Positions 5,031 through 26,566 of a DNA stretch of 62,438 nucleotides are shown piece after piece. The stretch comes from a virus (taxonomy: Duplodnaviria; Caudoviricetes), in the IMG/VR virus record IMGVR_UViG_3300023174_000004, positions 1 to 62,438 of that record; one strand, given 5' to 3'. A program made the position numbers and the translations under genes. The notes under the pieces were generated by a model that was given only the letters and a program-made list of their open reading frames with translations, made no database searches and was not told where the DNA came from. Each line of letters starts with the position of its first letter. The first letter of the stretch is position 1.

Positions 5031-5068
5031 CGTGGCGGCTATATAACGACTCAGTCCCCCCTGAGGGG

Positions 5069-5097
5069 TTGACTTTCCCCTATGGATAGATTACATT
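5069..5097 (+). promoter_or_regulatory. Sigma70-like early promoter P3
   Basis: TTGACT-17bp-TACATT, followed by a hairpin at 5104-5146; CTCAG-N6-CTGAG site immediately upstream (5050-5065). Confidence 0.7.
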
Positions 5098-5173
5098 TAA
5101 TACATGGACAGCGCGGTGCATCGGTTTGGTGTAGTTTGGTGTCCATTAATTCAACTTTTTTTGGAGATTCACA

Positions 5174-5758
5174 ATGCAAAGCATTAATGTAAAAAACCTC
5201 ACCTATAAATTCGCTACTCTCAAAAGTGACGAATTAGATGTTGCAAAAGAGATTTACTCTGAGTACCCTGATTTTCATGAGCGTCAGAGTGACGAAGTTT
5301 TGCAAGCGGTTAAAGAGGGCGCGATGTTGAAATGGCAGGAATTGAACCCCGCAAAATCTTATTCTGCAAAGGATTGGACACCCGTCAAAGATGGGACAAA
5401 GGGCGCGATTCTCGCCACCGCTGAATGGGCCTTGAGTGTCAGCACTCAGAAAACAAACAGTATGAAAAAAGATGACCCAGGTCAACACGCGATTTTGCGT
5501 AGTGTGCAAATTCCATGCAATGCTTATATCTCAGCGACTAAGGTCGCATTGATCGCAAAGGTGAGAGAGCATCACAATGCGGTTACAGGGATTAAAAAAG
5601 AGAGAGCACCAACGGCATGGTTTACCGATCACTTGAAAACAACATTCGTTGCACTCAAGACCCGATGCAAGACAGCTAAGGGTAGGGGGGACGATGGTGC
5701 TGATAGTGATAAGTTAGATAAGGCAATCGCCGCATTCAATGCGGTTTGGTTAAAGTAA
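5174..5758 (+). CDS. Early hypothetical protein (194 aa)
   Basis: TTGGAGA RBS; monocistronic cassette. Confidence 0.8.
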   Translation: MQSINVKNLTYKFATLKSDELDVAKEIYSEYPDFHERQSDEVLQAVKEGAMLKWQELNPAKSYSAKDWTPVKDGTKGAILATAEWALSVSTQKTNSMKKDDPGQHAILRSVQIPCNAYISATKVALIAKVREHHNAVTGIKKERAPTAWFTDHLKTTFVALKTRCKTAKGRGDDGADSDKLDKAIAAFNAVWLK

Positions 5759-5768
5759 TTTAACCCCG

Positions 5769-5806
5769 AGACCCGATCAATCGCAAGGTTGATCGGGTCT
5801 TTTTTT
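5769..5806 (+). terminator. Intrinsic terminator
   Basis: AGACCCGATCAATC-GCAA-GGTTGATCGGGTCT followed by a T run. Confidence 0.9.
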
Positions 5807-5815
5807 CGTCCGAGA

Positions 5816-5862
5816 TTTTTTTGATGCCAGTGATTTGTCCCCGCGAGTGTGTACAGCGCGAG
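5816..5862. repeat. Conserved post-terminator box, copy 3
   Basis: Near-identical to copies 1 and 2. Confidence 0.85.
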
Positions 5863-5929
5863 TCTTAAATAGCGGGTCAGCCATGCCTGAGGCAATAGAT
5901 AAGGGTTTAGCTACCGAGCCTTCCCCCCG

Positions 5930-6560
5930 AGTTATGTCCAGTTAGTGTTCTAGGTCATATGTCCAGTTTGTTTTGAAAATAGAACATGTCAAGTTTGGTT
6001 TTGTTCTACTTTCAGGACAAACTGTACAAAAGAGTTAGAACATGTCAAGTTAGTGTTCTAAGTTATATGTCCAGTTTGTCTCGAAAATAGAACATGTCAA
6101 GTTAGTGTTCTAACTCTTTTGTCCAGTTTGTTCTGGAAATAGAACATGTTCTACTTTTTTTAAACTTTACAGAACAGAGTTGGACATATCTTTGTCTTAT
6201 AAATCAAGCACTTACAGCGTTCGACCCCTATTTGTTCTATTTGTTCTAGTGTTTTCGGGCAACAAAGGGATTTTTAATTAAAAGAGAGCAAGAGAGCATG
6301 TCAGCAAGTGCAAAGACTCAACTTTACACAACCCGCAAAAAAACATAAAAAAACCCCCGCCCCTCTAAAATCACTAGAACAAATAGAACATGTAAAGTTA
6401 TATATATTTTATATATATATATAGTAGTAATAAAACCCTTTTATTCGTAAAGTTAACCCCTCTTTTGAATACTTTATTACTTTGTTCTAATGTTCTATTT
6501 ACCTGATTAAAAATTAAGCACCGCCTAGAACATTTAGAACATGTCAAGTTACAGCCCTTT
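5930..6560. repeat. Non-coding iteron array with AT-rich tract, putative replication origin
   Basis: TAGAACATGTCAAGTT at 5980, 6036, 6088 and 6535; many TAGAACA/TGTTCTA and ATGTCCAGTT units; 29-bp inverted repeat 6014-6042/6106-6134; (TA)n tract near 6398-6424. Confidence 0.65.
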
Positions 6561-6582
6561 ATAAAAAACACACCTGCTTCCA

Positions 6583-6611
6583 TTGTATTATATGTAAAGT
6601 TACTATAAAAT
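6583..6611 (+). promoter_or_regulatory. Putative promoter
   Basis: TTGTAT-17bp-TAAAAT; the spacer contains an iteron-like ATGTAAAGTT. Confidence 0.5.
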
Positions 6612-6723
6612 GGGAGTTCGCTGGGAGAGAAAACTGCCTGAACAGGCTGGCTAACAGCGATCCGCAGTCTGTGCCGCTAGATAGTGGCTCAGACAACCCT
6701 GAGACTTTAAACTGGAGATCAGC

Positions 6724-7053
6724 ATGAAAGCTACCTTTGTTCAACACAAACTGAACCTGCCCTATCCCCTGCACCCTGCCACACATCAGTACCTGCCCCG
6801 CCGTATGCGTAAGGCGTTGCGCGTTGTGATACCCAAGGGTAAACCCCAGACCTATACCAACTGGGATGTGGATGTTGAATTGCGGACAGACCACATTGAC
6901 CCTGTGCTACACCAGAACCTAGAGTTCCTTGATCGTGCATACGACTTTGATGAGTTCGGTGACATTGACAATGAGTTCGATGGGCTGACGATCGTTGAGC
7001 CCATGAACGAGGTCGAGTTGTTTAACTTCTGCACTGGGTACGATGTGATCTAA
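6724..7053 (+). CDS. Hypothetical protein with acidic C-terminus
   Basis: AACTGGAGATCA RBS. Confidence 0.75.
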   Translation: MKATFVQHKLNLPYPLHPATHQYLPRRMRKALRVVIPKGKPQTYTNWDVDVELRTDHIDPVLHQNLEFLDRAYDFDEFGDIDNEFDGLTIVEPMNEVELFNFCTGYDVI

Positions 7054-7103
7054 ATGTGCAGAGTAATAAACGATGTCTCAGCCTACCCTGAGGAGATAAA
7101 CAA

Positions 7104-7325
7104 ATGAGCAAAAGAAAATGGATCAAGCCTGGGCCCATGACAGGCTATCCCCCTGGCTTACTGCAAGACGATGACCCTCAGTTGTCGAAGTGGTTTGCCA
7201 CACGCCTTGACGCACGGCGAGTAGTGCGTAGTGTTTGCAAGGAGATCGAAGATGAACGACTACACCATGTCCGAGCGCATACAGCGCGTTGTGGTTCTGG
7301 TAGCACTGATCGTGCTAATGCTTGA
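7104..7325 (+). CDS. Hypothetical protein
   Basis: GAGGAG RBS; TGYPPGLLQDD segment. Confidence 0.6.
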   Translation: MSKRKWIKPGPMTGYPPGLLQDDDPQLSKWFATRLDARRVVRSVCKEIEDERLHHVRAHTARCGSGSTDRANA

Positions 7326-7347
7326 TGTACTAATCTGGCGTCCGTGA
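7252..7347 (+). CDS. 31-aa single-pass membrane peptide (not in the ORF track)
   Basis: AAGGAGA RBS; MNDYTMSERIQRVVVLVALIVLMLDVLIWRP. Confidence 0.6.
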   Translation: MNDYTMSERIQRVVVLVALIVLMLDVLIWRP

Positions 7348-7521
7348 GGGTAAATCCCTACGAAAAAAACACGGACAAAAGCATAGGTTTATATGTCAAG
7401 TTGTCTTATAATGAGAACACTGGAGAAGCAAAGTAACAAGCGCCGATTCAGTAGTTCGTTCAGTAATCAATGCCTCAGCTAAGTCTGAGACACAGTTCAA
7501 CCATTCAGTTAGGAGTCAGTC

Positions 7522-7788
7522 ATGGGACAGATGAAACGCATTTACGAAGCCCTCTGCGAGTCACAAGAGTTGGAAGAGTTACTCAACCGCAGACCAGAAC
7601 CCAAACCCCTCACCCCTGTTGTGCATGTACTCACCTGCAATGGTGAGATCGTCAATGTCTTTGTTGACAAGCAAACCGCACTCTTTGAAATGCACCTCAC
7701 CATTCAGGGTGACGAGCATGAGGGTCTTACCCCCGCCGACTATGTACTGGAGACAGTACCCCTTCAAACTCATCGCTTTGATCAGTAA
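7522..7788 (+). CDS. Hypothetical protein
   Basis: AGGAG RBS; TATAAT at 7407 upstream. Confidence 0.7.
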   Translation: MGQMKRIYEALCESQELEELLNRRPEPKPLTPVVHVLTCNGEIVNVFVDKQTALFEMHLTIQGDEHEGLTPADYVLETVPLQTHRFDQ

Positions 7789-8003
7789 TGACAATGCGTA
7801 TGAAACCCCTATGCGCTCGGTGCGGAGATACCTTCTCCGCTAAGAGGGCTAACGCTGGCTATCACCTTTGCCTGATCTGTGGCGAAGAGGAAGCTAGGCG
7901 TAGGCGGCACACCATTGCCCCTATGCACAAGAGCAATTACATGCTCATCACCAACCTTGACGATCTCAAGGGTCTCAACAACAAAGGCGGTATGTTCCGC
8001 TAA
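7788..8003 (+). CDS. Small C4 zinc-finger protein (DksA/TraR-like finger spacing)
   Basis: CARC...CLIC; TAATG coupling to the upstream gene. Confidence 0.65.
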   Translation: MTMRMKPLCARCGDTFSAKRANAGYHLCLICGEEEARRRRHTIAPMHKSNYMLITNLDDLKGLNNKGGMFR

Positions 8004-8029
8004 ACAACTTCTCAGCATAGTCTGAGTCA

Positions 8030-8968
8030 ATGGAGAACGATATGAATTTTGAATTGCAAACCCCCGAGCATGTGATCAGCCTTGCATCTAGTGGACTGAT
8101 CGTCCATGTGGATGTGAATGTTTGGTCAGCAACCAAGCAAGACAAACGCATCAGCAATGAGGTGACTGAAGCATACAAAGCAGACGCAGACGCGGGCCGC
8201 TTCACAAAGAACCTCTTAGCCAAGAACCCACACCACAAGGCGTTGGTCAACTACAGACAGACCATAAACAATTGGTTACAGCGCCGCGCATACGATTGGC
8301 AAGCCAATCTGAAGTACCTGCCTGTGGTGGACATTGAGGTGTTCATGAAAGAGTATCGAGAGCATGAGACCGAGTTCAGGAAGTTGGTGGAGACATTCAA
8401 GACGCATTACCCGAGCATCCGTTCAGACATGGCGTTCAAGCAAGGCGACTTCTTCAATGCCTCAGACTACCCTGAGGTGGAGGAGATCGATGGCAAGTTC
8501 CGCATCAAGTTGTATGTGACCGAGGTTCCGACAAATGACTTCCGCAACAAGATCAGCGAAGAGATCATGGGCGACTTGAAAGATCACTTCCAAAAGCAAG
8601 CCAAGTCTAAGGTCGATGAGATCATGGCGGATGCGGCGGGGCGTCTGGTTACCTTTGCTGAGCGCATTTCCTATGCATGCGGTGAGCCTGAGGATGCGGA
8701 CGAGGTGGGGGAGGATGGCAAGAAGAAGCGCAAGCGCAAGATTTATGAGACAACGATACAACAGACCAAGGACTTGTGCCGCACCCTGAAGGACTTTAAC
8801 TTGACTAACAACGCTGAGTTGGAGGACGCGAGGGCGAGGCTGGCACAGGCACTGGAGGGTATCGATGCGGAGACATTACGAGACAGTATGGCGTTGCGCG
8901 ATAGCGTGAAGGCGCAGGTCGATGATGTGTTGGATGTGTTCAAGCTGAACACGAGTTTGTTTAACTAA
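8030..8968 (+). CDS. Coiled-coil phage protein (DUF3150-like) preceding the AAA/VWA pair
   Basis: 312-aa helical protein; position upstream of a MoxR ATPase. Confidence 0.55.
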   Translation: MENDMNFELQTPEHVISLASSGLIVHVDVNVWSATKQDKRISNEVTEAYKADADAGRFTKNLLAKNPHHKALVNYRQTINNWLQRRAYDWQANLKYLPVVDIEVFMKEYREHETEFRKLVETFKTHYPSIRSDMAFKQGDFFNASDYPEVEEIDGKFRIKLYVTEVPTNDFRNKISEEIMGDLKDHFQKQAKSKVDEIMADAAGRLVTFAERISYACGEPEDADEVGEDGKKKRKRKIYETTIQQTKDLCRTLKDFNLTNNAELEDARARLAQALEGIDAETLRDSMALRDSVKAQVDDVLDVFKLNTSLFN

Positions 8969-8981
8969 GTAAGGAGGATGT

Positions 8982-9176
8982 ATGTCAGAGTTTGAATGGG
9001 TTATGTTTCTTGCATGGGCAGTCATGCTGTTCATGTATTGGAGGGCGAATCGGAGGGCTAGGTTTCTGGCCCACTGTCTGATTGCCGTAGGTAAGGGTGA
9101 GATGAAGGTTCTTGTCAACGAAGAGGATCGCACTTATTCCCTTGAGAAGGTTGATCAATCGATCAGCCGTGTCTGA
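8982..9176 (+). CDS. Small membrane protein
   Basis: N-terminal hydrophobic helix; AAGGAGG RBS. Confidence 0.7.
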   Translation: MSEFEWVMFLAWAVMLFMYWRANRRARFLAHCLIAVGKGEMKVLVNEEDRTYSLEKVDQSISRV

Positions 9177-9201
9177 GTCTTAATTTAACTGGAGATCACA
9201 A

Positions 9202-10281
9202 ATGGCTAAAGTATCCACAATCCCGATGGTATCCATCAAAGAGTGCATCAACATCATCAAGCTGGTTGGTGCGAAGCTTACCCCAATGATTATGAGTGAG
9301 CCTGGGGTAGGCAAGTCGAGCATCCTTGAAGCGTTGCGCGTTGAGTTGGGTGAGGATGAGTATGACTTCATCTACCTCGACTGCCCGAACAAAGAGATCA
9401 TGGACATTGCGGCGAGCATACCAAACCATGCGACCAAGGCGCTTGAGTACTATGTGTCGAGCCTGTTCAAGCTGGGCAATGGCAAGAAGAAGGTCATCAT
9501 GCTTGACGAGATGCTCAAAGCACCGAAGATGTTACAGGTCTTGTTTACCCGCATGATCCTTGAACACATGGTCGGGGATGAGAAGTTACCCGATGGTTCG
9601 ATACTGTTTGCTACGAGTAACAACGCGACCGATGGTGTGGGCGACACAATGGCGGGTCATGTGGCGAACCGCTTGATGGTGGTGCGTATGCGTAAGCCTA
9701 GCGCATCCGAGTGGAATACATGGGCGAGTGCCAATGGCATCAATCGTGTTGTCCGCGCATGGGTAGCGATGTATGGTGCGAAGGTTATGGCATCCTATGT
9801 TGATGGAGATCAAGAGGACAACCCGTACATCTTCAAACCCTCCAGCATGGTCAAGCAGTTTGCTAGTCCACGGTCATTGGCAAAGGCATCACACATTGTT
9901 GATCAGGCCGATGCGTTGGGCGAGAACGCGACCATGTGTGCGCTGGCTGGCACGATCGGTGAGGCGGCGGCAAGAGACATGGCGGCGTTCCTGTCCTTGC
10001 AACATAAGGTCTCAGATGTGGCTGAGATCATAAAGCACCCGCTTACTACACCATGCCCGAACGATGATGTGGCGGCGTTACTGTTGATCATGTTCCAAGC
10101 GATTGACAAGATCAATGAGCACGATGAGTTGAGCAAGTTCATGGAGTATGTTGAGCGTATCAATTCCAGCGAGGTTCAATCCATCTTCTTTACCATGATG
10201 ATGAGAGCAAAGACTAAGCTGGCTAGACACAACGACAAGATCAAGTCATGGGCCAAAGACAACTACGAGTTGATGGCGTAA
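9202..10281 (+). CDS. MoxR/dynein-related AAA+ ATPase
   Basis: Walker A EPGVGKS, Walker B IMLDE, sensor ATSN, SPRS sensor II. Confidence 0.85.
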   Translation: MAKVSTIPMVSIKECINIIKLVGAKLTPMIMSEPGVGKSSILEALRVELGEDEYDFIYLDCPNKEIMDIAASIPNHATKALEYYVSSLFKLGNGKKKVIMLDEMLKAPKMLQVLFTRMILEHMVGDEKLPDGSILFATSNNATDGVGDTMAGHVANRLMVVRMRKPSASEWNTWASANGINRVVRAWVAMYGAKVMASYVDGDQEDNPYIFKPSSMVKQFASPRSLAKASHIVDQADALGENATMCALAGTIGEAAARDMAAFLSLQHKVSDVAEIIKHPLTTPCPNDDVAALLLIMFQAIDKINEHDELSKFMEYVERINSSEVQSIFFTMMMRAKTKLARHNDKIKSWAKDNYELMA

Positions 10282-10305
10282 GTAATTTTTAACAGGAGAT
10301 CAATC

Positions 10306-11565
10306 ATGCTAGTAGCAGACAAGGAAGAGGTGCGCCTCAAACGCGCCCACATTAAATTGATGAAGAGCCCACACACGGCGCTTTACTCAGGCGTTATGTT
10401 GTTGGGTTACTCAAGCGTTGAGGAGAATGTCCCCACGGCATGCACCGATGGTGTGAACAAACGCTATGGGCGCAAGTTCATGGCTAAGTTACCCGAGCCA
10501 CAGTTCAATGCCGTGGTCTTGCACGAGAACCTTCATGTGGCATTGAAGCACATCCCCTTCCATCGCCCAAAGTGGAAAGAGGATCACAAGACGGCGAACA
10601 TCGCCGCTGACTTGGTGGTTAACGACATCATCTATCTCATCTCTGAGGTAGCGCCTGACTTGGTGAAGTTACCCGAGAGTGCGATATGGCATCCGATGTT
10701 CCGCGATTGGTCATTCAATCAGATATACGACTTCTTGAGGAAGCAAGGCAAAGGGAAGACCGGCAAGGAGAAGGGTAACGAGAAGGGCAAGGGCAATGGG
10801 AGTAACCCCTCAGAGGGGTCTGAGCCGCAAGAAGACGGCGGCAATGGGCCCGAGCCTTTTGACATTGACAACCTCCCCGAGGGGTTCGATGAGCATGACT
10901 TCAGCAATGAGGACATTGGCAAAGAGACAGTCGATCGCATTGATCGTGCGTTGCGTGAAGGCGGCATCCTCGCAGGGCGCATGGGTGGTAACACACCTAG
11001 GGCTATCCAAGACCTGCTGACTCCCAGGGTCAACTGGCGTGAGGCGTTGCGTGACTTCCTGTCTGAGTACGGCGCGGGTAAGGATGAGTTCACATGGCGC
11101 AGGTTCAATCGGCGTATGTTGCCCAACGATATGTATCTGCCTAGCACCTACTCCGAGAAGGTAGGGGAGTTGATCTTTGCGTGTGACACATCAGGTTCGA
11201 TCGATCAAGAAGCTCTGACTGCTGTTGCTTCTGAGATGTGTGCAATATGTGATGACCTCAATCCGAGTGCGGTGCGTGTGCTGTGGTGGGACACGATGGT
11301 TGCGGGAGAGCAGAAGTTTGAGGACAAGTACGAAGGACTGGCATCGTTGTTAAAGCCGCAAGGAGGGGGCGGTACTAGGGTCTCAGCCGTACCTGAGTAC
11401 ATAAAGAGCAAGAACATTCAAGCACAAGCGATTGTGGTGTTCACCGATGGTTATGTGGAGAGCGATATCAAGTGGGACATAAACACTCCTACTCTGTGGT
11501 TGATCACACACAACAAGTCACTGAGCATCCCCGCTGGGCACAAACAAGTCATCTATGAGGAGTAA
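10306..11565 (+). CDS. Putative metallopeptidase plus VWA domain protein (DUF2201-like)
   Basis: TACTDG, HENLH (HExxH), MIDAS DTSGS, GGGGT, VFTDG. Confidence 0.85.
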   Translation: MLVADKEEVRLKRAHIKLMKSPHTALYSGVMLLGYSSVEENVPTACTDGVNKRYGRKFMAKLPEPQFNAVVLHENLHVALKHIPFHRPKWKEDHKTANIAADLVVNDIIYLISEVAPDLVKLPESAIWHPMFRDWSFNQIYDFLRKQGKGKTGKEKGNEKGKGNGSNPSEGSEPQEDGGNGPEPFDIDNLPEGFDEHDFSNEDIGKETVDRIDRALREGGILAGRMGGNTPRAIQDLLTPRVNWREALRDFLSEYGAGKDEFTWRRFNRRMLPNDMYLPSTYSEKVGELIFACDTSGSIDQEALTAVASEMCAICDDLNPSAVRVLWWDTMVAGEQKFEDKYEGLASLLKPQGGGGTRVSAVPEYIKSKNIQAQAIVVFTDGYVESDIKWDINTPTLWLITHNKSLSIPAGHKQVIYEE

Positions 11566-11568
11566 GCA

Positions 11569-12551: not shown

Positions 12552-13529
12552 ATGTCAGTAATTCATGAACATGCACAACCTGAAATGCAAGCGGAGTTGA
12601 CCCAGTTGTTAAGCATTCAGCAACCCCTGAGTCTCTTTGTAAAGGAGATGCATAGCAGGTTCAAGTTCCATGCGATTAGCACTCAACCCGCGATCAGCCT
12701 GTCTTGGCATCGTAAGAATGCGTACCCCTCTGTATATATGGTTAACCCCGATGGGGTTTTCATGTGTGAGATTTGGTACGGCCCACAAGGAGAGGACAAG
12801 GGAGAGAAGACTGAGAATGTGTATGGCATCTATTCGCCTAGCGCAATCTGTAGAGACCGAGTGCCTCGCAACTTGTCGCGCAGCATTGCCCAGCATGTAC
12901 GAGAGTCTAAGAAACTATCGTCATTGTTCACGGCGTTGAAGAAGTGCGATGAGGACATCGTTACCTGTAGCAAACTAGAAGAACACGTTCTGCGTTGTGC
13001 GCGGGATGCAAGCAACTGTGTGGGTGAGATGAAGAAAGTCCATTGTGTAATTGGAGAATCGGAAGATGAATTATCTTTATTAAATTTTGTTTTGGGTATT
13101 GACAAAGACTTGACATTACAGCAAACTGGGCGCTTCAAACAAATGCAAGAGAAACTGATGAAGGCTTTCCATAAAGCCGAATTAGATTCTCGCAAGTTAC
13201 TTCAGTTCAGGAAAGAGTTGACCGTGTTAATGCCGTTGTACAAAGGTGGGTTCTATCTCACAAAGATAGAGGGTGAATCAGATGGGTCGAAGTTCACCTT
13301 TGTTGAGCCCATTCGGTATCTGTCGAACCTTGACGAGCATGATGATTTGAAGGTGGGTTTTCTCATGCTCAAGGAAGTCATGTCACAAGGCGAAGTCGAT
13401 AGCGTGACGAAGCTGAGGCATTCAGACATGTACTACAAAGACCTTGACATTGCTACATCCAGCAATGGGGACAAGGATGGAATGCTCACGCCGTTTTGCA
13501 TCTTCTTTCCAACACACACTAGCGCATGA
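12552..13529 (+). CDS. Hypothetical protein (325 aa)
   Basis: AAGGAGA RBS. Confidence 0.75.
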   Translation: MSVIHEHAQPEMQAELTQLLSIQQPLSLFVKEMHSRFKFHAISTQPAISLSWHRKNAYPSVYMVNPDGVFMCEIWYGPQGEDKGEKTENVYGIYSPSAICRDRVPRNLSRSIAQHVRESKKLSSLFTALKKCDEDIVTCSKLEEHVLRCARDASNCVGEMKKVHCVIGESEDELSLLNFVLGIDKDLTLQQTGRFKQMQEKLMKAFHKAELDSRKLLQFRKELTVLMPLYKGGFYLTKIEGESDGSKFTFVEPIRYLSNLDEHDDLKVGFLMLKEVMSQGEVDSVTKLRHSDMYYKDLDIATSSNGDKDGMLTPFCIFFPTHTSA

Positions 13530-13921: not shown

Positions 13922-14189
13922 ATCTGTTGTAACCAATACGCTCAAGCAGATGAAGGCTTACATCGTGAAGCCGATGGGCGTTGGATATGGCAACTCAGGG
14001 GTGCCTGATTTAATAGTTTGCGTTCGTGGTCGGTTCATTGGAATAGAGTGCAAGGCGAAAGGAGGTAAGACAACGGCCTTGCAACTTCACAACCTAAATT
14101 CGATAGAGATGGCAGGGGGTGTCGCGTTGGTAATCAACGAGAACAACATGCATGATCTTGAACAACTCATAGAGGAACAAATGAAATGA
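13893..14189 (+). CDS. VRR-NUC (PD-(D/E)XK) nuclease, possible Holliday junction resolvase
   Basis: TPEAKVK, SGVPDLI, FIGIECK, TALQ motifs. Confidence 0.85.
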   Translation: MAMTPEAKVKSVVTNTLKQMKAYIVKPMGVGYGNSGVPDLIVCVRGRFIGIECKAKGGKTTALQLHNLNSIEMAGGVALVINENNMHDLEQLIEEQMK

Positions 14190-16309: not shown

Positions 16310-16891
16310 ATGAGCAAAAGAACACCGCGCCGTAAATCAAACATGATACGGGCATATATGTACGCTAACCCTGATGTGTCTTTAAAAACAATAGCGGACA
16401 TGTTTAAGGTAAACATACATACTATCTATGGGATACGCCACTTTGATAAGAAGAACTCAACTGCGGCAACCATTGCCTCAGGGGGGTCTGAGCCACCTAA
16501 CTGCACAGTAACGCATCAACCTGATGGACTTGTAGAAGTCAAAGGTAAGTACAACTCTATGCTTATCACTGAGAAACAGTTTAATGGCCTTAGTCCCGCG
16601 CAACGGTCTAACATTTCTTACAACTTGAACAAGCTACCTGCGCGTATGCAAGGCGTGACATCCACAGTGCATGATCCGGTGAACCAACCCTCTCACTACA
16701 AGGTAGGGGGCGTAGAGACCATTGACTTTATTGAAGCCAAAGGTCTGGGGTATCACTTGGGTAATGTGGTCAAGTACATAACCAGAGCAGGGCACAAAGG
16801 TACAAACCAAGGTCTTGAAGACCTCAGAAAAGCGCGATGGTATCTTGACAGAGCCATTGAGAAGAACGAGTATCACAACCCTGAGAATTGA
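16310..16891 (+). CDS. DUF3310 (SaV-like) domain protein with N-terminal HTH-like region
   Basis: DPVNQPSHY..GGVETIDFIE...GNVVKYITRAGHKG...EDLRKARWYL. Confidence 0.8.
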   Translation: MSKRTPRRKSNMIRAYMYANPDVSLKTIADMFKVNIHTIYGIRHFDKKNSTAATIASGGSEPPNCTVTHQPDGLVEVKGKYNSMLITEKQFNGLSPAQRSNISYNLNKLPARMQGVTSTVHDPVNQPSHYKVGGVETIDFIEAKGLGYHLGNVVKYITRAGHKGTNQGLEDLRKARWYLDRAIEKNEYHNPEN

Positions 16892-17192: not shown

Positions 17193-19088
17193 TTGTCCCT
17201 AATTACCCTTGACTTTGAAACTTACTATTCAAAGTCGTTCAGTCTAAGTAGATTACCTACGGAGGAGTACATACGCTCTCCCGAGTTTGAAGTCATTGGA
17301 GTTGGTATCAAGATTGATACTGATCCTGTGCAGTGGTACTCAGGCAGTCGTGAGTCTTTGCGTAAGACCCTGCTATCCCTTGATTGGCGCAACAGCAATC
17401 TGCTCTGTCACAACACGATGTTTGATGGGGCCATCCTCAAATGGTTCTTTGGCATCTCGCCCAAGTTTTATCTTGATACTTTGTGCATGGCAAGGGCGAT
17501 GCATGGCGTTGAGGTGGGTGGGTCTCTACGAGCGTTAGCCGAGCGTTACGAGTTGGGCGTCAAGGGCGATGAGGTACTCAAGGCGATCGGTAAATACCAA
17601 GCAGACTTTACCCCGATAGAGTTGGCAGAGTACGGCCAGTACTGCATGAACGATGTCCAGTTAACCTACGACTTGTTCTTTAAGTTGGTTCCGGCCATGC
17701 CTGAATCCGAACTTGATCTAATAAATATGACACTCCGGATGTTCACACATCCTAAGCTGATGATCGATGAGCCTGTGTTGTACGAGCGTTTACAAGCTTT
17801 GAACAAAGAGAAACAGGAGTTGCTCTCATCCCTCAAGGACAAGTTGGAGTGCGAGGATGAGGAGGCAGTACGCAAGAAGCTGGCGAGTAACCCCCAGTTT
17901 GCCAAGGTGTTGCGTGACTTTGGCGTTGAGCCTGAGATGAAGATCAGCAAGACAACAGGCAAGCCCACACTCGCGTTGGCTAAAGGCGACCCACAGTTTA
18001 TAGCGTTGACTGAACACGAGGATTCATTCATCCAACACCTGTGCGCGGTAAGGCTGGGCACTAAGTCCACGATCGAAGAGTCCCGCATCCAGCGGTTCAT
18101 TGACATAGGTAAGCGCAACCGAGGGACTATCCCCATCCCTTTGAAATACTACGGCGCACACACGGGTAGATGGGCTGGCTATGACAAGGTTAACTTCCAG
18201 AACTTACCCAGCCGCGACCCCAAGAAGAAGGCGCTCAAACGTGCCATCGTTGCGCCAGAGGGCTATGTAGTAATTAACTGCGATTCATCCCAGATTGAGG
18301 CCCGAGTGTTAGCTTGGCTCTCAGGGCAGTCTGATCTGGTAAAAGCCTTTGCAGACAAAGAGGATGTCTACAAGATCATGGCGTCCAAGATATATGCCAA
18401 AGCGGTTGAGGGCATTGACAAGGACGAGAGGTTCGTAGGTAAAACAACCATCCTTGGATGCGGCTACGGCATGGGCGGCAGTAAGTTTATGCATCAACTG
18501 AAGTCAATGGGGCGCACCCTGACCGAGAAAGAATGCAAGGACATTGTTACTGTCTATCGGGATACCTATCCTAGTATAAAAAATCTATGGACAGAAGGCG
18601 ATACTGTCCTGAAGAAGTTGGTCACGCAAGACTTTGGAGATGCCCCCTATTACTTTGGGGTGCAGAAGTGCGTGAAGGTAGATGAGTCAGGGGTTACCCT
18701 GCCCAACGGTCTGGGTATACGCTACAAAGACTTAAGGCATATCGATGAGATCATTGAGTCCGGATCAGAAGAAGAGGCTGACACAGTAAGGCAACGCACC
18801 ATCTACTCATCCCGCAAGGGAGATGTGTCCATATGGGGTGGGACATTCGTAGAGAACGTGGTGCAAGCCTTGGCGCGGATCATTGTGGGTGAGCAGATGA
18901 ATGAGATCAACAAGAAGTATCAGGTGGTCTTAACTGTCCACGATGCGGCGGTGATCGTTGCCCCCGAGGATGAGGTGGACAAGGCTATAGCCTTCGTGAC
19001 TGGCATCATGTCTACGCCGCCAGCTTGGGCCCCTGGACTGCCTGTTGCATGCGAGGCTGGGTTTGCACAAAATTACGGCGACTGCTAA
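17193..19088 (+). CDS. polA: DNA polymerase, family A (3'-5' exonuclease plus polymerase domains)
   Basis: Exo LDFET and HNTMFD; HTGRWAG; motif A DSSQIEAR, motif B RFVGKTTILGCGYG, motif C TVHDA; likely TTG start at 17193. Confidence 0.93.
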   Translation: MSLITLDFETYYSKSFSLSRLPTEEYIRSPEFEVIGVGIKIDTDPVQWYSGSRESLRKTLLSLDWRNSNLLCHNTMFDGAILKWFFGISPKFYLDTLCMARAMHGVEVGGSLRALAERYELGVKGDEVLKAIGKYQADFTPIELAEYGQYCMNDVQLTYDLFFKLVPAMPESELDLINMTLRMFTHPKLMIDEPVLYERLQALNKEKQELLSSLKDKLECEDEEAVRKKLASNPQFAKVLRDFGVEPEMKISKTTGKPTLALAKGDPQFIALTEHEDSFIQHLCAVRLGTKSTIEESRIQRFIDIGKRNRGTIPIPLKYYGAHTGRWAGYDKVNFQNLPSRDPKKKALKRAIVAPEGYVVINCDSSQIEARVLAWLSGQSDLVKAFADKEDVYKIMASKIYAKAVEGIDKDERFVGKTTILGCGYGMGGSKFMHQLKSMGRTLTEKECKDIVTVYRDTYPSIKNLWTEGDTVLKKLVTQDFGDAPYYFGVQKCVKVDESGVTLPNGLGIRYKDLRHIDEIIESGSEEEADTVRQRTIYSSRKGDVSIWGGTFVENVVQALARIIVGEQMNEINKKYQVVLTVHDAAVIVAPEDEVDKAIAFVTGIMSTPPAWAPGLPVACEAGFAQNYGDC

Positions 19089-20218: not shown

Positions 20219-20223
20219 ATAAC

Positions 20224-20251: not shown

Positions 20252-20399
20252 TAGGGGTGTGGTCGTAAGGCATGAGTGGGCCACAAGGTTTTCTTAGGTT
20301 TGACCTATTAACCGTGTCAGTCAAGCGGCGTTCCAATTAGTAAGCATACTGATCTCCAACGCGACAGGCTTGACACCAACAATCAGTTCAAGGACAGTA

Positions 20400-21980
20400 A
20401 TGGAAATAGTGTTAGACAGTGCAGTGCGATTCAAGGCTCCATACGAGGATGCTCAGTTCATCACATCATGCATTGAGAAGAGTGAAATACTGAACAACGC
20501 CTCAGGGTTGTCTGAGGTGCTGGTTAACTGGCAACTCCCTGAGATGGAGCGCCTTGCAGGCATCGTGCCGCGAGAAATCAAAGTGCCATCTCCCATCACT
20601 CGGGATTATGACTGGCCCGGTTTGTTCAAGCCCTTTGATCACCAAGTTGAAACAGCGGAATTCTTGACGTTGCGTAAACGTGCTTTCTGCTTCAACGAGG
20701 CAGGTACAGGCAAAACATCAGCGGCGATATGGGCGGCTGACTACTTGATGAAAAAAGGATTGATCCATAGAGTCCTTGTCATCTGCCCTCTGTCTATCAT
20801 GTTTTCAGCATGGCAAGCCGACCTATTCAAAACTGCTATGCACCGCACCTGCGCCGTGTGCTATGGCACCCCAGACAAACGCAAGAAAATTATTGCTGGC
20901 AACTATGAGTTTGTCATCATCAACTATGACGGCGTTAGCGTTATCCAGAAAGAGATTGCCGCAGGTGGCTTTGACTTGATCATTGTGGATGAGGCAAACG
21001 CATACAAGAACGCCACTACGCAACGCTGGAAGACCCTATCAAGAATTATTCAGGTCAACTCCTACCTGTGGTTGATGACAGGAACCCCCGCGAGTCAGTC
21101 TCCCCTTGACGCCTATGGGCTAGGGCGGCTGGTTAACCCAAGCGGTGTGCCGAAATTCGTAACGGCGTGGCGCGACAAGGTGATGCAACAGATCACACGC
21201 TTTAAGTGGATACCAAAGCCTCAGGCCAAAGAAGTCGTGTTCAACGCTTTGCAACCTGCCATACGCTTTGAGAAGGCCCAGTGCCTTGACCTACCCGATG
21301 TTGTGTACCAGATCAGAGAAGTGCCACTCACACCGCAGGCAAAGGCTTACTACAGACTGCTGAAGAAAGAGATGATGGTTCAGGCGGCAGGGGAGCAGGT
21401 CAGCGCAGTCAATGCGGCGGCTTCCCTGAACAAGTTACTTCAGCTATCCGGTGGCGCAGTCTATACGGATAGCGGTGAGGTGTTGGAGTTTGATGTGTCA
21501 CCACGCAAACAGGCTCTGCGCGAAGTGATGGAGGAGACAGAACATAAGGTGATTGTGTTTGTGCCTTACCGCCACACCATCAGTGTTGTAAGTGATTTTC
21601 TAACCAAGGAGGGATACTCATCAGAAATCATATCCGGTAGCGTTTCAGCAAGGGAACGCAATGAAATCTTCATCAGGTTTCAGACGGCAACTAACCCGAA
21701 GGTGCTGATCATTCAGCCCCAAGCGGCTTCACACGGTGTCACATTGACTGCCGCAAACACTGTGGTCTTTTGGTCTCCTGTCATGTCGGTTGAAACATAC
21801 CTTCAATGCATAGCCCGAATGGATCGCGTAGGACAACAAAATAAGATGACTGTCGTACACCTTCAAGGCTCTGACGTAGAGCGTCGGGTCTTTGAGATGC
21901 TACAAAACAAAGTTGACATGCACAACAAATTAGTTGATCTCTATCAAACGGAAATAGGAATAGGAGAAGACGATGACTAA
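20400..21980 (+). CDS. SNF2-family (SF2) helicase
   Basis: AGTGKT, IIVDEA, LMTGTP, HGVTLTAA, QCIARMDRVGQ. Confidence 0.9.
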   Translation: MEIVLDSAVRFKAPYEDAQFITSCIEKSEILNNASGLSEVLVNWQLPEMERLAGIVPREIKVPSPITRDYDWPGLFKPFDHQVETAEFLTLRKRAFCFNEAGTGKTSAAIWAADYLMKKGLIHRVLVICPLSIMFSAWQADLFKTAMHRTCAVCYGTPDKRKKIIAGNYEFVIINYDGVSVIQKEIAAGGFDLIIVDEANAYKNATTQRWKTLSRIIQVNSYLWLMTGTPASQSPLDAYGLGRLVNPSGVPKFVTAWRDKVMQQITRFKWIPKPQAKEVVFNALQPAIRFEKAQCLDLPDVVYQIREVPLTPQAKAYYRLLKKEMMVQAAGEQVSAVNAAASLNKLLQLSGGAVYTDSGEVLEFDVSPRKQALREVMEETEHKVIVFVPYRHTISVVSDFLTKEGYSSEIISGSVSARERNEIFIRFQTATNPKVLIIQPQAASHGVTLTAANTVVFWSPVMSVETYLQCIARMDRVGQQNKMTVVHLQGSDVERRVFEMLQNKVDMHNKLVDLYQTEIGIGEDDD

Positions 21981-22374: not shown

Positions 22375-22402
22375 CAGTAAATACAGTTTGGAGAAAACTA
22401 AC

Positions 22403-23257: not shown

Positions 23258-23580
23258 TGATGACAAGGACATACGGTAAAGAATTGCAGAAGCTGATTAG
23301 CAGAGAAGATGACAGTAGGCTTGGGGTTGAGTTAGCTAGGGTTTGCGTCAACGCTAACCTTCCAGCCATCCATGTTGCTGGTATTTTTGGCGTGTCTCGC
23401 ATGACGATACATAGCTGGTTCAGAGGAGGCATGATCCGTATGTCCTATCGTCCCACTATTGACCGATTCATGGATCAGGTTGAGGATGATATGGGGAAGG
23501 AAAGACTGCCAGCAGAGTCAGTCGCAGAAGCAAAATCATACCTAGACCGGATTCGTAGCACAGTTAATAGCGGTAAGTAA
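23254..23580 (+). CDS. HTH DNA-binding protein
   Basis: VAGIFGVSRMTIHSWFRG. Confidence 0.7.
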   Translation: MMMTRTYGKELQKLISREDDSRLGVELARVCVNANLPAIHVAGIFGVSRMTIHSWFRGGMIRMSYRPTIDRFMDQVEDDMGKERLPAESVAEAKSYLDRIRSTVNSGK

Positions 23581-23629
23581 TTTCGCTCTGGGCGGGGTGA
23601 TCCCCCGCCCTAATTGTCTCTGCAATCCA

Positions 23630-26566
23630 ATGACTAAACAATTTTATGAAGCAATTTTGCCGACGCAGGGGTACTACTGTGTGGCAGGGATCACGGTACA
23701 AGGTAAGATTTCTACCCGGTTCTGTGAGAGTGTAGATGAGGTACTTGAGTTAGTTGATCACTTCAACGCTCAAAACGGAATGAATACGTACTTCACACCG
23801 AGTACGTATGAAAGCTACTCGCGCAAACAGGAAGCAAGCCTGTTCACGAGGTCGTTATTTCTGGACATTGACTGCGGGGAAGACAAGCCCTACGCAGATC
23901 AAGCTGAAGGTATGGCGGCATTGGACAAGTTCATCGTTGACTCAGGGTTGCCTGAGCCTATGCGATTGAATTCTGGTAGGGGGTTGTACGCCTATTGGAT
24001 TTTTGAATCCGAGGTCGCAACGTCTGTATGGCAACCCTATGCAGATAGGTTCAAACAACTTACTGTTGATCTTGGGTTTGAGGTTGACCCTGCTGTGCCA
24101 GCAGATTCGGCTAGGTTAATCCGATGCCCTGCAACCTTAAATTGGGGCAAAGCGAAACGTCCCAACGTCCCGCCGTTGCCTTCGGAGTTACTCAGTGAGA
24201 TCGTCACATATCCATTCGAGCAGCTTACATCTATTTTGGATGCAGTAAAAGTTGAACCCAAGACAGACAATGTTCTGGACTTCAACCTTAAGAGGGTTGC
24301 TAAGGGTTTGGATGATGAGACCCGCAAGATGTTGGGCATGGACAACTACGAGTTCAGATTTGACAAGATCGCCGTAGACAGTCTTGAGGATAGAGGATGC
24401 GCTCAGATCAAGTGGGCTATTGAAAACGCCAAGACATGCCCTGAACCTATGTGGCGCTCTGCGCTGTCAATTGCAATTGCTTGCGTTGATGGCGACGAGG
24501 CTATACACCTTTTATCAGAAGAACACCCAGATTACACACCAGAAGAAACTGAGAAGAAAGCCGATGACATACGCAAAGCGATCGACGGTACGCATACCTG
24601 CGCTACTTTTCAAAGCCACAGACCTAAGGGATGTGATGGTTGCCCCCACCGAGGCAAATTCAAATCCCCCTACGCCCTCGGCAAAACATTCATCATTGCC
24701 AAACCCCCAGTTGAAGAGCCAGAAACCGCCCCCGAGGAAGCGGAGTCAGTTCGGGAGGTTCCGAAAAATACACCTCTCCACCTACCGGAGTACATGAGGC
24801 CGTTTGTAATGGGGATTCATGGTGGCATCTACTATCAACCGCAATCCAAGACAAAGAAGGATGGATCGGTTGAGTCCTTTGATCCGGTGCTGGTGGTTAA
24901 GCATGATCTGTATCCCACACAGAGATTGTTCAGTCCCTACGAAGGTGAGTGTCTCAACATGCGGCTTGTGTTGCCCAGAGATGGGGTGCGTGACTTCCTG
25001 CTTCCCATGAAGTCTGTATCAGCACAGGAAGAGTTCAAGAAGGTGATGTCCAGCAATGGCGTGTTTACAACTGACAAACAGAAAACGGATTTACTCATGA
25101 AGTATGTAACGAAGTGGGCAGACTATCTACTAGAGACCTCTGCCGCACAGTCAATGCGCTTCCAGCAGGGCTGGTCGCAAGACAAGCAGGGCTATCTTGT
25201 TGGTAGGACAGAGTACCGCATGGACGGTTCAACTGCTGAATGCCCCCCATCTACGCTGGCAAAGCCTGTTGTAGACTTGATCAAGCCCTCAGGCACGTAT
25301 GAGGCTTGGCGCACAGCGGTGGATATGCTCAATGATCCAGGCTATGAGTACCACGCTTTCTGTTTGCTTATGGGGTTTGGCTCCCCCCTGCTTAGATTTA
25401 CCAACGTGCATGGCGCAGTGATTGGGCTACTGGGAGAAAAGGGCGCTGGTAAGACAGGTGCGCTGTTTGCAGGTCTGAGTGTTCATGGCAGCCCCGAAGA
25501 GTTAAGCGTCATGGATGCAACAGAGAATGGATTGGTTCAACGCATGATCACGCTTAAGAACCACATGTTTGGTCTGGATGAGTTCTCTAACGCATCAGGC
25601 GAGGCGCTATCCAAACTGATCTATTCTCTGTGCGCTGGCAAGGGAAAGATCAGGCTTCAATCGTCAACTAATGCCGAGCGTCCGCTGTCTTTTATGTCTG
25701 CCCTGCTATCTCTGATCACAATGAATCAGTCTGCTAGGGACAAGGTGGCGGCATACAAGAAGGACTCAGGAGCAGAGGAGGTGCGCTACCTTGAGTTCAC
25801 AGTCCGCAAACCTATGGTCAAGGGCTACGAGTTAGACGATGCCCGAGGCATAGCGATGTTTCAAACGCTGGTCAAAAACTATGGGCATGCAATGCCTCGC
25901 TTTGTCAAAGTGCTTGCAGAATTGGGTGAGGATGAAATCCAGAGCCGGGTTGACAAGTGGCGTGAGAGAGGTCGCTTGGAGTTGACTACAGACTCAGGCT
26001 ATCGGTTTGTGAACAGTGAGTTCTCCGCCGTATTTGCCGCAGGGGAGATAGCTGTTGAGCACGACATCATCAACATAGACATTGAGCGCATCTACAAGTT
26101 CATGCTTGCAGAAACTCATAAGGTTATTGACACAAGCAATAAAGGTATTGATTATGAAAGCGTGTTGGGTGACTTCATCAACAGTAACCTTCAGAACCTA
26201 CTTGCCCTAAAAGAAGGCAAGGTTGTCATGGAACCCCGAGGCCCATTGGTAATGAGAGCAGACGCAGAGCGGGGCATTTTGCAAATTTCCAAAACTCCGG
26301 TGAAAGACTTCCTCGCCCGATCGCAGATAGGGGTTAGAGCGTTTGAGATGGCCCTTAAGGAGCGCGGTGTCTTGCTGACCGCTGACAAGAAGGTTCGCCT
26401 TGGGTCTGGTTGGAAGGCTGGCACTGGGGTTGCGCTTGTCTATGCCTATGAGTTCAAGACGGATTTAACAGAGGTATTCAAGAATGTCGAAGAAGCAATC
26501 GGATCAGAGACCGATGGGGGAACCGGAGTGGATATTCCCCTTCCAGATCATGAAGATCGGGGATAG
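23630..26566 (+). CDS. Primase-helicase (AEP-type primase plus DUF927-like NTPase)
   Basis: LFLDIDC, NSGRGLYAYW, DSARLIRCP, Cys cluster CATF..CDGCPH, Walker A GEKGAGKT, Walker B GLDE. Confidence 0.8.
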   Translation: MTKQFYEAILPTQGYYCVAGITVQGKISTRFCESVDEVLELVDHFNAQNGMNTYFTPSTYESYSRKQEASLFTRSLFLDIDCGEDKPYADQAEGMAALDKFIVDSGLPEPMRLNSGRGLYAYWIFESEVATSVWQPYADRFKQLTVDLGFEVDPAVPADSARLIRCPATLNWGKAKRPNVPPLPSELLSEIVTYPFEQLTSILDAVKVEPKTDNVLDFNLKRVAKGLDDETRKMLGMDNYEFRFDKIAVDSLEDRGCAQIKWAIENAKTCPEPMWRSALSIAIACVDGDEAIHLLSEEHPDYTPEETEKKADDIRKAIDGTHTCATFQSHRPKGCDGCPHRGKFKSPYALGKTFIIAKPPVEEPETAPEEAESVREVPKNTPLHLPEYMRPFVMGIHGGIYYQPQSKTKKDGSVESFDPVLVVKHDLYPTQRLFSPYEGECLNMRLVLPRDGVRDFLLPMKSVSAQEEFKKVMSSNGVFTTDKQKTDLLMKYVTKWADYLLETSAAQSMRFQQGWSQDKQGYLVGRTEYRMDGSTAECPPSTLAKPVVDLIKPSGTYEAWRTAVDMLNDPGYEYHAFCLLMGFGSPLLRFTNVHGAVIGLLGEKGAGKTGALFAGLSVHGSPEELSVMDATENGLVQRMITLKNHMFGLDEFSNASGEALSKLIYSLCAGKGKIRLQSSTNAERPLSFMSALLSLITMNQSARDKVAAYKKDSGAEEVRYLEFTVRKPMVKGYELDDARGIAMFQTLVKNYGHAMPRFVKVLAELGEDEIQSRVDKWRERGRLELTTDSGYRFVNSEFSAVFAAGEIAVEHDIINIDIERIYKFMLAETHKVIDTSNKGIDYESVLGDFINSNLQNLLALKEGKVVMEPRGPLVMRADAERGILQISKTPVKDFLARSQIGVRAFEMALKERGVLLTADKKVRLGSGWKAGTGVALVYAYEFKTDLTEVFKNVEEAIGSETDGGTGVDIPLPDHEDRG

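Follow-up and report, generated by a model that had tools for sequence, protein, structure and literature searches.

A 16-base palindrome conserved along the early/replication genes of an uncultivated freshwater phage

Introduction

Knowledge of multi-copy regulatory sites in phage genomes comes mainly from a small number of temperate model phages. The conserved inverted repeats of Streptomyces phage phiC31 are a multi-copy palindromic early operator that is read by a phage regulator, in a temperate phage with a known repressor. Stoperators, also from temperate phages, are 13 bp long and orientation-dependent. One account of the mycobacteriophage cluster A stoperators (PMC9283540) describes many copies of a short repressor site spread genome-wide, including transcribed regions that are not promoters, and presents these sites as asymmetric, read by a monomer, and active on elongation as well as on initiation.

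Here we describe a 16-base palindrome that occurs about 17 times along the early/replication genes of an uncultivated freshwater phage and is a real, conserved signal. The window we analyzed is the complete 62.4-kb genome (62,438 nucleotides), in which a rightward early/replication arm faces a leftward structural arm ending in the gene for a 2240-aa virion protein. Scans of this phage against PHROG or Pfam did not find an integrase or repressor family.

Results

The first-pass annotation had listed 12 perfect copies of CTCAG-N6-CTGAG and called the motif over-represented. All 12 are present at those positions, against 0.13 expected, and none of 100 dinucleotide shuffles contained 12 or more. 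Allowing up to one mismatch gave 21 sites (2.0 expected), which include the five imperfect copies noted earlier (5876, 9162, 13994, 17339 and 18320) and additional copies at 12616, 25288, 56053 and 56314. The conserved core is TCAG-N6-CTGA, found 20 times in the whole genome where 1.26 are expected. Seventeen of these 20 core sites fall within 5051-23955 and 3 in the remaining ~40 kb, and no perfect copy was found in the leftward structural arm, in line with the original description of an element confined to the early arm. The 17 sites extend over ~19-20 kb, both between and within genes, as a multi-copy site dispersed through transcribed DNA, and all sites of the arm (5050-23956) lie on a segment transcribed in one direction, rightward. 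Codon shuffling, which had been proposed as a control, did not reproduce the intragenic copies: 7 perfect sites lie inside genes against 0.088 expected (500 synonymous-codon shuffles, maximum 1), and 11 core sites against 1.0 (500 shuffles, maximum 4).

The sites and the features beside them are given below. Sites carry no strand, and conservation refers to G001, a relative that is 66% identical overall, unless another relative is named.

5050..5065, perfect site CTCAGTCCCCCCTGAG, 3 nt 5' of the -35 box of the promoter of gene 5174-5758
5069..5097, + strand, sigma-70-like promoter TTGACT-17-TACATT of gene 5174-5758, called by consensus scan only
5174..5758, + strand, P0002, basic immediate-early protein of 194 aa, candidate regulator binding the sites, predicted to homodimerize
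5876..5891, site GTCAGCCATGCCTGAG with intact core and an outer-base mismatch, bordering the iteron region on the left; conserved
6688..6703, perfect site, 20 nt 5' of the ATG at 6724, bordering the iteron region on the right; compared with G001
7077..7092, perfect site, 11 nt 5' of the ATG at 7104
7474..7489, perfect site, 32 nt 5' of the ATG at 7522; compared with G001
8011..8026, perfect site, taking up the 26-nt space ahead of gene 8030-8968 (DUF3150-like)
8461..8476, perfect copy within gene 8030-8968
9162..9177, core-intact site ATCAGCCGTGTCTGAG, 24 nt 5' of the ATG at 9202 (MoxR-like ATPase)
10011..10026, perfect copy within the ATPase gene; not conserved
10809..10824, perfect copy within the VWA/DUF2201 gene; conserved
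11382..11397, second perfect copy within the VWA/DUF2201 gene; conserved
12616..12631, site TTCAGCAACCCCTGAG with intact core, within gene 12552-13529; conserved
13994..14009, core-intact site CTCAGGGGTGCCTGAT, encoding S-G-V-P-D of a nuclease
16477..16492, perfect intragenic site in gene 16298-16891
17339..17354, copy CTCAGGCAGTCGTGAG mismatched at an inner base, within the DNA polymerase gene; membership doubtful
18320..18335, site with intact core, within the DNA polymerase gene; conserved
20501..20516, perfect copy within the helicase gene; conserved in both G001 and L015
23941..23956, perfect copy within the primase/DUF927 gene; conserved

As had been reported, sites occur both near promoters or ribosome-binding sites and in coding sequence. 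The 5050 copy adjoins a -35 box, five intergenic copies lie 11-32 nt 5' of start codons, and 10 core-intact copies lie within conserved replication and other genes, 8 of them positionally conserved in G001. Sigma-70-like promoters and intrinsic terminators occur in the early arm. The 5050 site, aligned with a G001 site, is ~80 nt 3' of a strong intrinsic terminator (4942-4970), and the 5876 site is ~75-80 nt 3' of another (5768-5801). An iteron-rich, AT-rich region (5930-6600) is flanked by palindrome sites. At the G001 position aligned with site 7077 there is no site, and the CTGA half alone is present. The position orthologous to site 8011 carries a lineage-specific palindrome in most relatives, and the G001 counterpart of site 8461 keeps its spacer unchanged while both outer bases differ (C..G to A..T). 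Site 13994, which encodes S-G-V-P-D, also occurs in distant relatives that do not have the motif, so protein sequence alone can explain that copy.

G001 retains 14 of the 17 core sites at the same aligned position, and its 24 sites all fall within 8605-29161 of a 47,842-bp record. One G001 copy has a Shine-Dalgarno sequence within its spacer and a 3' half that overlaps the ATG. Conservation at synonymous positions had been set beforehand as a test capable of refuting a functional site, and the reading was not refuted: third-codon core bases are identical at 17 of 17 positions between the window and G001, against a background of 49% (P about 6e-6). Intergenic core bases are identical at 47 of 48 positions versus 62% in the flanks. 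Among six fragments from close relatives (4.0% diverged over 51,136 positions), we counted 0 changes at 208 core positions and 5 at 156 spacer positions. Judged by these alignments, the palindrome sites are under selection.

The geometry of the element is strict. In the arm, inverted core half-sites are separated by 6 bases in 17 cases, by 9, 10 or 11 bases in one case each, and never by 0-5, 7, 8 or 12; direct or everted arrangements number 0-1 in the whole window. N6 is the only enriched spacer, its bases change at the background rate, and the core is invariant, so the half-sites are inverted at a fixed distance around a free spacer. The symmetry extends outward to a two-fold consensus of ~36 bp, TAnnYAnYGnn[TCAG-N6-CTGA]nnCRnTRnnTA, that is mirrored both at the 17 intergenic and at the 24 intragenic sites contributed jointly by the window and G001 (flank mirror score 0.334 versus 0.25-0.26 when shifted). 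Watson-Crick pairing across flank positions is about that given by independent consensus, with no base-pair covariation. Outer-base variants and mismatched copies are uncompensated, as was first observed, and no bias to G-U over A-C was found among outer-pair variants. For eight of the 12 perfect copies, folding is no stronger than in shuffled sequence (z about -1 or higher); stems in the window are 5 bp, rarely 7-9, with a 6-nt loop and a dG of -4.5 to -14 kcal/mol. The strict N6, free spacer, symmetric flanks without covariation and weak folding agree with the earlier preference for a dimeric DNA-binding protein over an RNA hairpin.

Half-sites change across phage lineages. Relatives keep the 4-N6-4 layout with altered half-sites (ATCAG..CTGAT, GTCAG..CTGAC, TTCAC..GTGAA), and closely related lineages range over C/A/G-TCAG, TTCAC and TTTCTTC-N4-GATGAAA. 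More distant lineages have wholly different palindrome sequences. The complete distant genomes G006, G008, G009 and G010 contain 1-3 copies of TCAG-N6-CTGA each, and loci of the last three and of other distant relatives carry palindromes at orthologous positions. These are long, true hairpins (stems 6-15 bp, loops 3-5 nt, dG -7.5 to -27 kcal/mol, z -3 to -10), some with 6-7 bp stems and 3-nt loops, and their inner stems vary by lineage yet stay complementary. Of 21 distant loci, 18 have an inverted repeat (5 bp or longer) 17-58 nt 5' of the ATG of the 8030-8968 ortholog, and in 16 of the 21 it recurs 2-8 times within the locus. The hairpins of G005 would be transcribed because they are located 3' of sigma-70-like promoters, which were chosen by eye; 4 of 6 copies share the same T-T stem mismatch. 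The variable yet complementary stems of the distant hairpins fit a structural role, in RNA or single-stranded DNA, at least as well as they fit an operator.

Because the half-site shifts between phage lineages, the reader is probably phage-encoded rather than a host factor. The first-pass annotation had suggested operators for a phage HTH protein; the operator is the reading we favor, and the three proteins it named as binders are not supported. HTH 16062 has no counterpart in G001 despite the 24 sites there. The recognition helix of HTH 23254 is nearly constant across lineages with quite different palindromes. The protein of 16298/16310 matches only DUF3310 (Pfam) and nucleotide-kinase PHROGs.

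The most likely binder of the palindrome, its own promoter included, appears to be the 194-aa protein encoded at 5174-5758. Family members are present in the window, G001 (2 copies), G005 and G006 (2 copies) and absent from the complete distant genomes G008, G009 and G010. In four lineages, 6 of 6 family promoters carry their own lineage's palindrome 1-4 nt 5' of the -35 box, which by arithmetic from the promoter scans puts the site centre at about -45 to -47. Around residues 86-97, family members that share a core motif are identical and those with different motifs differ, a co-variation that is not independent evidence because it also tracks phylogeny. The protein has a pI of 9.2, equal to the family median. 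Its homodimer prediction scored 0.84, versus 0.01 for the best of 3 controls. Of proteins solved as pairs of one chain, 20 of 30 reached that score, as did 1 of 23 solved as single chains; these counts are only rough because our own alignment was used. Across homodimer runs at least 87% of contacts agree, partner pLDDT is at least 86, and the named interface residues exclude 58-121. The protein matched no Pfam or PHROG family, and a Foldseek search with its predicted structure returned nothing at E<=0.001 and no recognizable DNA-binding fold; VIA-align reached a Z of 6.1 at best, a value without meaning for a helical protein. In metagenomes this family of candidate regulators is widespread (297 representative clusters), and it has no known fold.

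Discussion

We lean toward reading the palindrome as an operator in double-stranded DNA, through which a symmetric dimer encoded by the phage would control the early arm. From the patterns above we infer protein binding, the identity of the binder and the direction of its regulatory effect. The operator would comprise the TCAG-N6-CTGA core and a lineage-specific outer base within the ~36-bp symmetric consensus, and each subunit of the dimer would contact one half-site, with the half-sites one helical turn apart. One copy would adjoin the -35 box of an immediate-early sigma-70-type promoter, and ~16 further copies would stand along the rightward arm, in short gaps before ribosome-binding sites and inside genes. 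Binding may tune or shut off transcription of the arm by host RNA polymerase through promoter control and roadblocks, leaving the leftward structural arm unaffected. The 194-aa protein would be the binder and would also act on its own promoter.

A bolder form of this proposal is that the sites are operators of an undescribed family of basic, all-helical, homodimeric immediate-early regulators whose specificity co-evolves rapidly with the operators. Such a regulator would repress or time the whole 20-kb arm of a virulent phage from ~17-24 promoter and intragenic roadblock sites, as a lytic counterpart of the stoperators. We offer it tentatively, as a possibility with perhaps one chance in a few.

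An RNA or structural role for the palindrome is a serious rival. As an RNA element, it would be a hairpin in polycistronic rightward transcripts, 5' of ribosome-binding sites, serving in processing, stabilization or translational control and read by a phage-specific RNA-binding protein or endoribonuclease, or by RNase III in distant relatives. The operator reading leaves the role of copies inside genes without explanation, and the five intergenic sites before start codons are where an mRNA element would sit. All arm sites are transcribed in one direction, and the G001 copy that spans a Shine-Dalgarno sequence and an ATG points the same way, as do the distant relatives, with recurrent repeats before an orthologous ATG, very stable hairpins whose stems vary but remain complementary, and, in G005, hairpins downstream of promoters. 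Within the window, however, the stem is 5 bp, most perfect copies show no folding beyond that of shuffles, the flanks have symmetry without pairing, and outer pairs show no preference for G-U. The loop is fixed in length and free in sequence, the opposite of most protein-recognized RNA hairpins. Copies at -35 boxes just 3' of terminators would be poorly transcribed, and the shared T-T mismatch in G005 also weighs against this reading. We consider an RNA element unlikely.

It is very improbable that the phage recruits a host protein to the sites, for instance a dimer of the CRP/FNR type or a nucleoid-associated one. The 5-N6-5 layout is like that of CRP-type sites, and the symmetric Y-R flank steps suggest bent DNA. 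The specificity of global host regulators is stable across broad taxonomic ranges, whereas here half-sites change among closely related lineages and are entirely different in distant ones.

We rank last, as a slim prospect, a structure-dependent DNA element, either a cruciform or single-strand hairpin acting as an N4-type promoter or a priming/replication signal from the iteron region. N4 early promoters resemble the 6-7 bp stems and 3-nt loops of some distant relatives, the early/replication arm faces a structural arm that ends in a very large virion protein gene, and sites flank the iterons. Against such an element, no phage RNA polymerase was detected. A six-frame genome search with PF00940 gave one 14.3-bit fragment, below the cut-off. 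The 2240-aa virion protein carries HExxH and LPD38 and lacked DxDxD, motif-B and HD[SA] signatures; PHROG gave no hit for it, and among PDB sequences nothing matched it at an E-value below 0.24. Full symmetry keeps the palindrome from setting a direction, the arm contains sigma-70-like promoters and intrinsic terminators, and a priming signal would be needed genome-wide, yet the sites lie in one arm. The parS-like, protective-site and host-factor readings in the first-pass annotation gained no positive support, and the half-site changes by phage lineage.

This phage has no detectable lysogeny genes and keeps ~17 copies of the palindrome across its early/replication genes, even though they constrain synonymous positions, and certain amino-acid ones, in the genes for polymerase, helicase and primase. 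The different palindromes that relatives carry at the same places form a natural series of matched operator variants, probably with matched regulators, in which co-evolution of DNA specificity can be studied. They also offer a way to test how the timing of early genes is achieved in such phages with host polymerase alone. Should the binder be confirmed, the matched pairs would be usable as orthogonal repressor/operator parts.

Several described systems share features with the element. The promoter-early stem-loops (PeSLs) of T4-type phages lie in near-identical cassettes repeated between early genes, are intergenic and are tied to gene shuffling; in contrast, 10 core-intact window sites are intragenic and 8 of these are positionally kept in G001. 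RNase III requires double-stranded RNA in a stem that spans roughly a helical turn or longer. The 5-bp window stems are too short for this enzyme, and the distant relatives, with up to 15 bp, have the feature. A T7-type polymerase promoter is asymmetric, ~23 bp long and paired with a cognate polymerase, whereas the window element is palindromic and no polymerase was detected. N4-type hairpin promoters, used by a phage-encoded, T7-like virion RNA polymerase, combine a 5-7 bp stem with a loop of 3 nt, and their conserved flanks are asymmetric and give the direction. The N4 strategy has been described (PMC4496689, PMC13492108). Both elements are phage-specific inverted repeats 5' of early genes and the distant relatives share the 3-nt loops, but the window has a 5-bp stem, a 6-nt loop, symmetric flanks and no detectable phage RNA polymerase.

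Mor/C of Mu and Ogr of P2 are small dimeric activators that use a dyad just 5' of or overlapping the -35 box, at few sites, all at promoters. The window shares the dyad just 5' of a -35 box, while most of its sites are far from recognizable promoters. CRP/FNR-type operators (TGTGA-N6-TCACA) resemble the element in their 5-bp half-sites (here with a 4-bp core), free 6-bp spacer, one-turn separation and a copy at a -35 box. They differ in half-site sequence and from the ~17 copies in 20 kb, coding sequence included; no CRP/FNR-like protein was detected in the phage genome. The phiC31 repeats share a multi-copy early-region palindrome, to which the window adds conserved intragenic copies; where phiC31 has a known repressor, the window has a candidate binder. 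Like the stoperators, the sites are present in many copies in transcribed DNA, but here they form a strict palindrome and occupy one arm of the genome.

The palindrome and its distribution

The palindrome CTCAG-N6-CTGAG is a real, strongly selected motif that is specific to the early arm of this phage. The window covers a complete IMG/VR virus record, 62,438 bp long and carrying direct terminal repeats. Between about 3.5 and 26.6 kb its genes point rightward and include small early genes and those for a MoxR-like ATPase, a VWA/DUF2201 protein, DNA polymerase A, an exonuclease, a helicase and a DUF927 primase. The rest runs leftward and contains terminase, portal, head, tail fibre and endolysin genes together with the gene for a 2240-aa virion protein. 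Scans of the window's genes turned up no integrase or repressor family. DNA runs containing this stretch are labeled mostly as freshwater or lake metagenomes, and two RNA runs contain small shares of it as assembled contigs, without RNA ends or strand.

The first-pass annotation reported 12 perfect copies of the motif, and we recovered every one where it had been placed (0.13 expected). The core, TCAG-N6-CTGA, occurs 20 times against an expectation of 1.26, and 17 of these copies lie between 5051 and 23955. Within genes there are seven perfect and 11 core copies, compared with 0.088 and 1.0, respectively, in synonymous-codon shuffles; codon usage or protein sequence thus does not account for the excess. 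One exception is site 13994 (sites are named by start coordinate), which encodes the S-G-V-P-D motif of a nuclease and is itself also present in distant relatives in which the palindrome is otherwise absent.

The geometry of the motif is narrowly defined. Only the N6 spacer is enriched in the arm: spacers of 0-5, 7, 8 and 12 nt gave no site, and those of 9, 10 and 11 nt gave one each. Direct or everted arrangements of the half-sites occur zero or one times in the whole window. Nine of ten intragenic sites share one reading frame, but we discarded this bias as uninformative because the half-sites CTCAG and CTGAG are equally frame-biased across the arm's genes. At site 5050, contigs of two runs have C in place of T at spacer position 5055. 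One DNA run has an additional C in this site, which would give a 7-nt spacer and may reflect misassembly of a homopolymer or the presence of a diverged relative.

Conservation of sites among relatives

A search with the polymerase returned 80 related loci. By polymerase protein, the nearest isolates (about 35% identical) are KPP25, phiR18 and Rhizobium phages. Megablast of 5000-25000 against phage records gave no match, and keyword searches of a limited literature collection found no description of the motif or the phage group. The collinear relative G001 (66% identical; record of 47,842 bp) contains 24 core sites, all inside 8605-29161, and 14 of 17 window sites align onto one of them in a MAFFT alignment.

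Conservation at synonymous positions, a point raised in the first-pass annotation, was borne out. In the eight intragenic sites common to the window and G001, third-codon core bases were identical at 17 of 17 positions against a background of 49% (P about 6e-6). In the six intergenic sites common to both, 47 of 48 core bases were identical, compared with 62% in the flanks. Fragments from close relatives (n=6, 4.0% divergence) showed no core changes (0/208) and five spacer changes (5/156). At site 8461, the spacer is unchanged in G001 and both outer bases are altered from C..G to A..T, with amino-acid changes incurred.

Recognition as DNA or as RNA

Several features favor double-stranded DNA with a two-fold symmetric reader, in line with the initial preference for a dimeric DNA-binding protein over an RNA hairpin. 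Site spacing is rigid and spacer sequence is free. In intergenic and intragenic sites alike, the left flank follows the consensus TAnnYAnYGnn and the right flank its complement; this mirror symmetry scores 0.334, compared with 0.25-0.26 in shifted controls. Mirrored flank positions pair no more often than independent consensus predicts. Outer-base variants occur without compensation and without G-U bias, and for eight of the 12 perfect sites folding is no stronger than in shuffled sequence. Strong intrinsic terminators precede sites 5050 and 5876 by about 75-80 nt. Site 5050 is also 3 nt upstream of a promoter (TTGACT-17-TACATT), and a sigma-70 promoter scan found none adjoining any other site.

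The main rival is a hairpin function in mRNA, which we consider fairly unlikely; findings in more distant loci nevertheless weaken the double-stranded DNA reading. Of 21 distant loci, 18 have an inverted repeat (5 bp or longer) no more than 90 nt from the ATG at the position equivalent to site 8011, just before the DUF3150-like gene (the automatic pick was wrong for the window and for the related loci L017 and L010, where sites are visible by other inspection). This repeat recurs 2-8 times per locus in 16 of the 21. The distant repeats form true hairpins: stems reach 15 bp, loops span 3-5 nt, and dG and z fall as low as -27 kcal/mol and -10, respectively. Three lineages have an outer GGACA...TGTCC in common, and the inner stems differ yet remain complementary. 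These hairpin-bearing genomes lack the family of the 194-aa protein encoded at 5174-5758. The conserved property of the wider family is therefore hairpin potential before ribosome-binding sites, and an RNA-level or structure-dependent role may apply even in the window.

A candidate reader

On balance, the motif is more likely than not a palindromic operator, present in many copies, for a dimer that the phage itself encodes. The half-site varies by phage lineage within a constant 4-N6-4 layout: CTCAG in the window, ATCAG in the related genomes G001 and G002, GTCAG in G004 and TTCAC in G006. Another relative, G005, has the palindrome TTTC(A/T)TC-N4-GA(T/A)GAAA. The complete distant genomes G006, G008, G009 and G010 contain only 1-3 copies each of TCAG-N6-CTGA. 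Judged from sequence, the shifts in half-site between lineages and the scarcity of this core in distant genomes point to a phage-encoded reader.

The best candidate binder is the immediate-early 194-aa protein encoded at 5174-5758. Its family comprises 297 representative clusters, has no Pfam or PHROG assignment, and is present in the window, G001 (two copies), G005 and G006 (two copies). In all six promoters of these family genes, the palindrome of the phage's own lineage lies 1-4 nt upstream of the -35 element and is preceded by a CGCTAnnTAGCG-like element. The protein is basic. A first structure model, built from eight sequences, was of low quality (pLDDT 68) and gave no hit in a fold search; a model from 82 sequences was helical and confident (pLDDT 95.8), with no fold match above Z 6.1. 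Structure prediction pairs the protein as a symmetric homodimer, scoring 0.84 against 0.01 for the best of three controls. Among proteins of solved structure, 20 of 30 that are pairs of one chain attained this mark, as did 1 of 23 that are single chains (rough counts, own alignment used). Contact agreement among homodimer runs was at least 87%, and partner pLDDT was at least 86. Residues ~86-97 are identical in same-core lineages and different where the core differs, a pattern that also tracks phylogeny.

Two helix-turn-helix (HTH) proteins that the first-pass annotation had put forward as binders did not hold up. The HTH protein at 16062-16247 has an HTH_7 match but no counterpart in G001, despite the sites in that genome. 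The one at 23254-23580, present in 41 loci, is unlikely, as its recognition helix (SRMT[IV][HY]xWF) is nearly constant across lineages with unrelated palindromes. We also weighed, as a possible alternative binder, the 71-aa C4 zinc-ribbon protein at 7788-8003 (CxxC-x17-CxxC). It is found family-wide, with a strongly conserved C-terminal motif, APMHKSNYMLIT, and a finger region that differs among lineages.

A phage RNA polymerase was considered and rejected, and none was found in the window. The PF00940 match in the 101-aa ORF at 15080-15385 is weak and local, a 60-residue fragment of 14-16 bits that covers model positions 324-382 of T7-type RNA polymerase, and it probably arose by chance. The 2240-aa virion-type protein (26702-33424, minus strand) has an N-terminal part rich in Ala, Gly and Pro, HExxH near residue 1008 and an LPD38 domain at its C terminus, and contains no polymerase motifs. 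PDB sequence searches with this protein, 11569-12540 and 12552-13529 gave no match.

Other elements of the early arm

The rightward arm contains the following additional elements.

3737-3817 and 3983-4063: intergenic repeat of 81 nt (91% identity) in the gaps between three small immediate-early genes, containing an ACCGCA-GGGA-TGCGGT hairpin
4279-4341, 4969-5031 and 5803-5865: 63-nt module TTTTGATGCCAGTnATTTGT..CCCGCGAG, after each of three intrinsic terminators and before the next early promoter
5930-6600: non-coding, with iterons (62-nt unit three times, at 5934, 6042 and 6094; 27-nt TAGAACATGTCAAGTTA-type unit five times) and an AT-rich run near 6395-6435
8030-11565: conserved triad of a DUF3150-like protein, a MoxR-like ATPase and a DUF2201/VWA protein
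17157-17177: terminator-like hairpin and T-run directly before the likely TTG start (17193) of DNA polymerase
19964-20218: very basic 84-aa protein (25 K+R) with an HNH-like motif by eye
20224-20251: near-consensus sigma-70 promoter TTGACA-16-TATACT with a leader of ~140 nt, before the helicase gene

Flanked by motif sites 5876 and 6688, the region 5930-6600 looks like a replication origin. A 54-nt part of the 81-nt repeat is ~90% conserved in G001, where the surroundings are unalignable, and a module similar to the 63-nt one occurs in G005. The DUF3150-like assignment is an Atlas lead, with PF11348 in 12-17% of neighboring-cluster members; this protein and the DUF2201/VWA protein are found across the phage family. 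The gene for the 84-aa protein is among the arm's most conserved, with 47-81% identity over 60 more distant related loci.

Comparison with known systems

The motif resembles the inverted repeats of phage phiC31. It also resembles stoperators (PMC9283540). It differs in being strictly palindromic and in belonging to a phage without detectable lysogeny genes. A further difference is that the intragenic copies are conserved here and the variants are lineage-matched.
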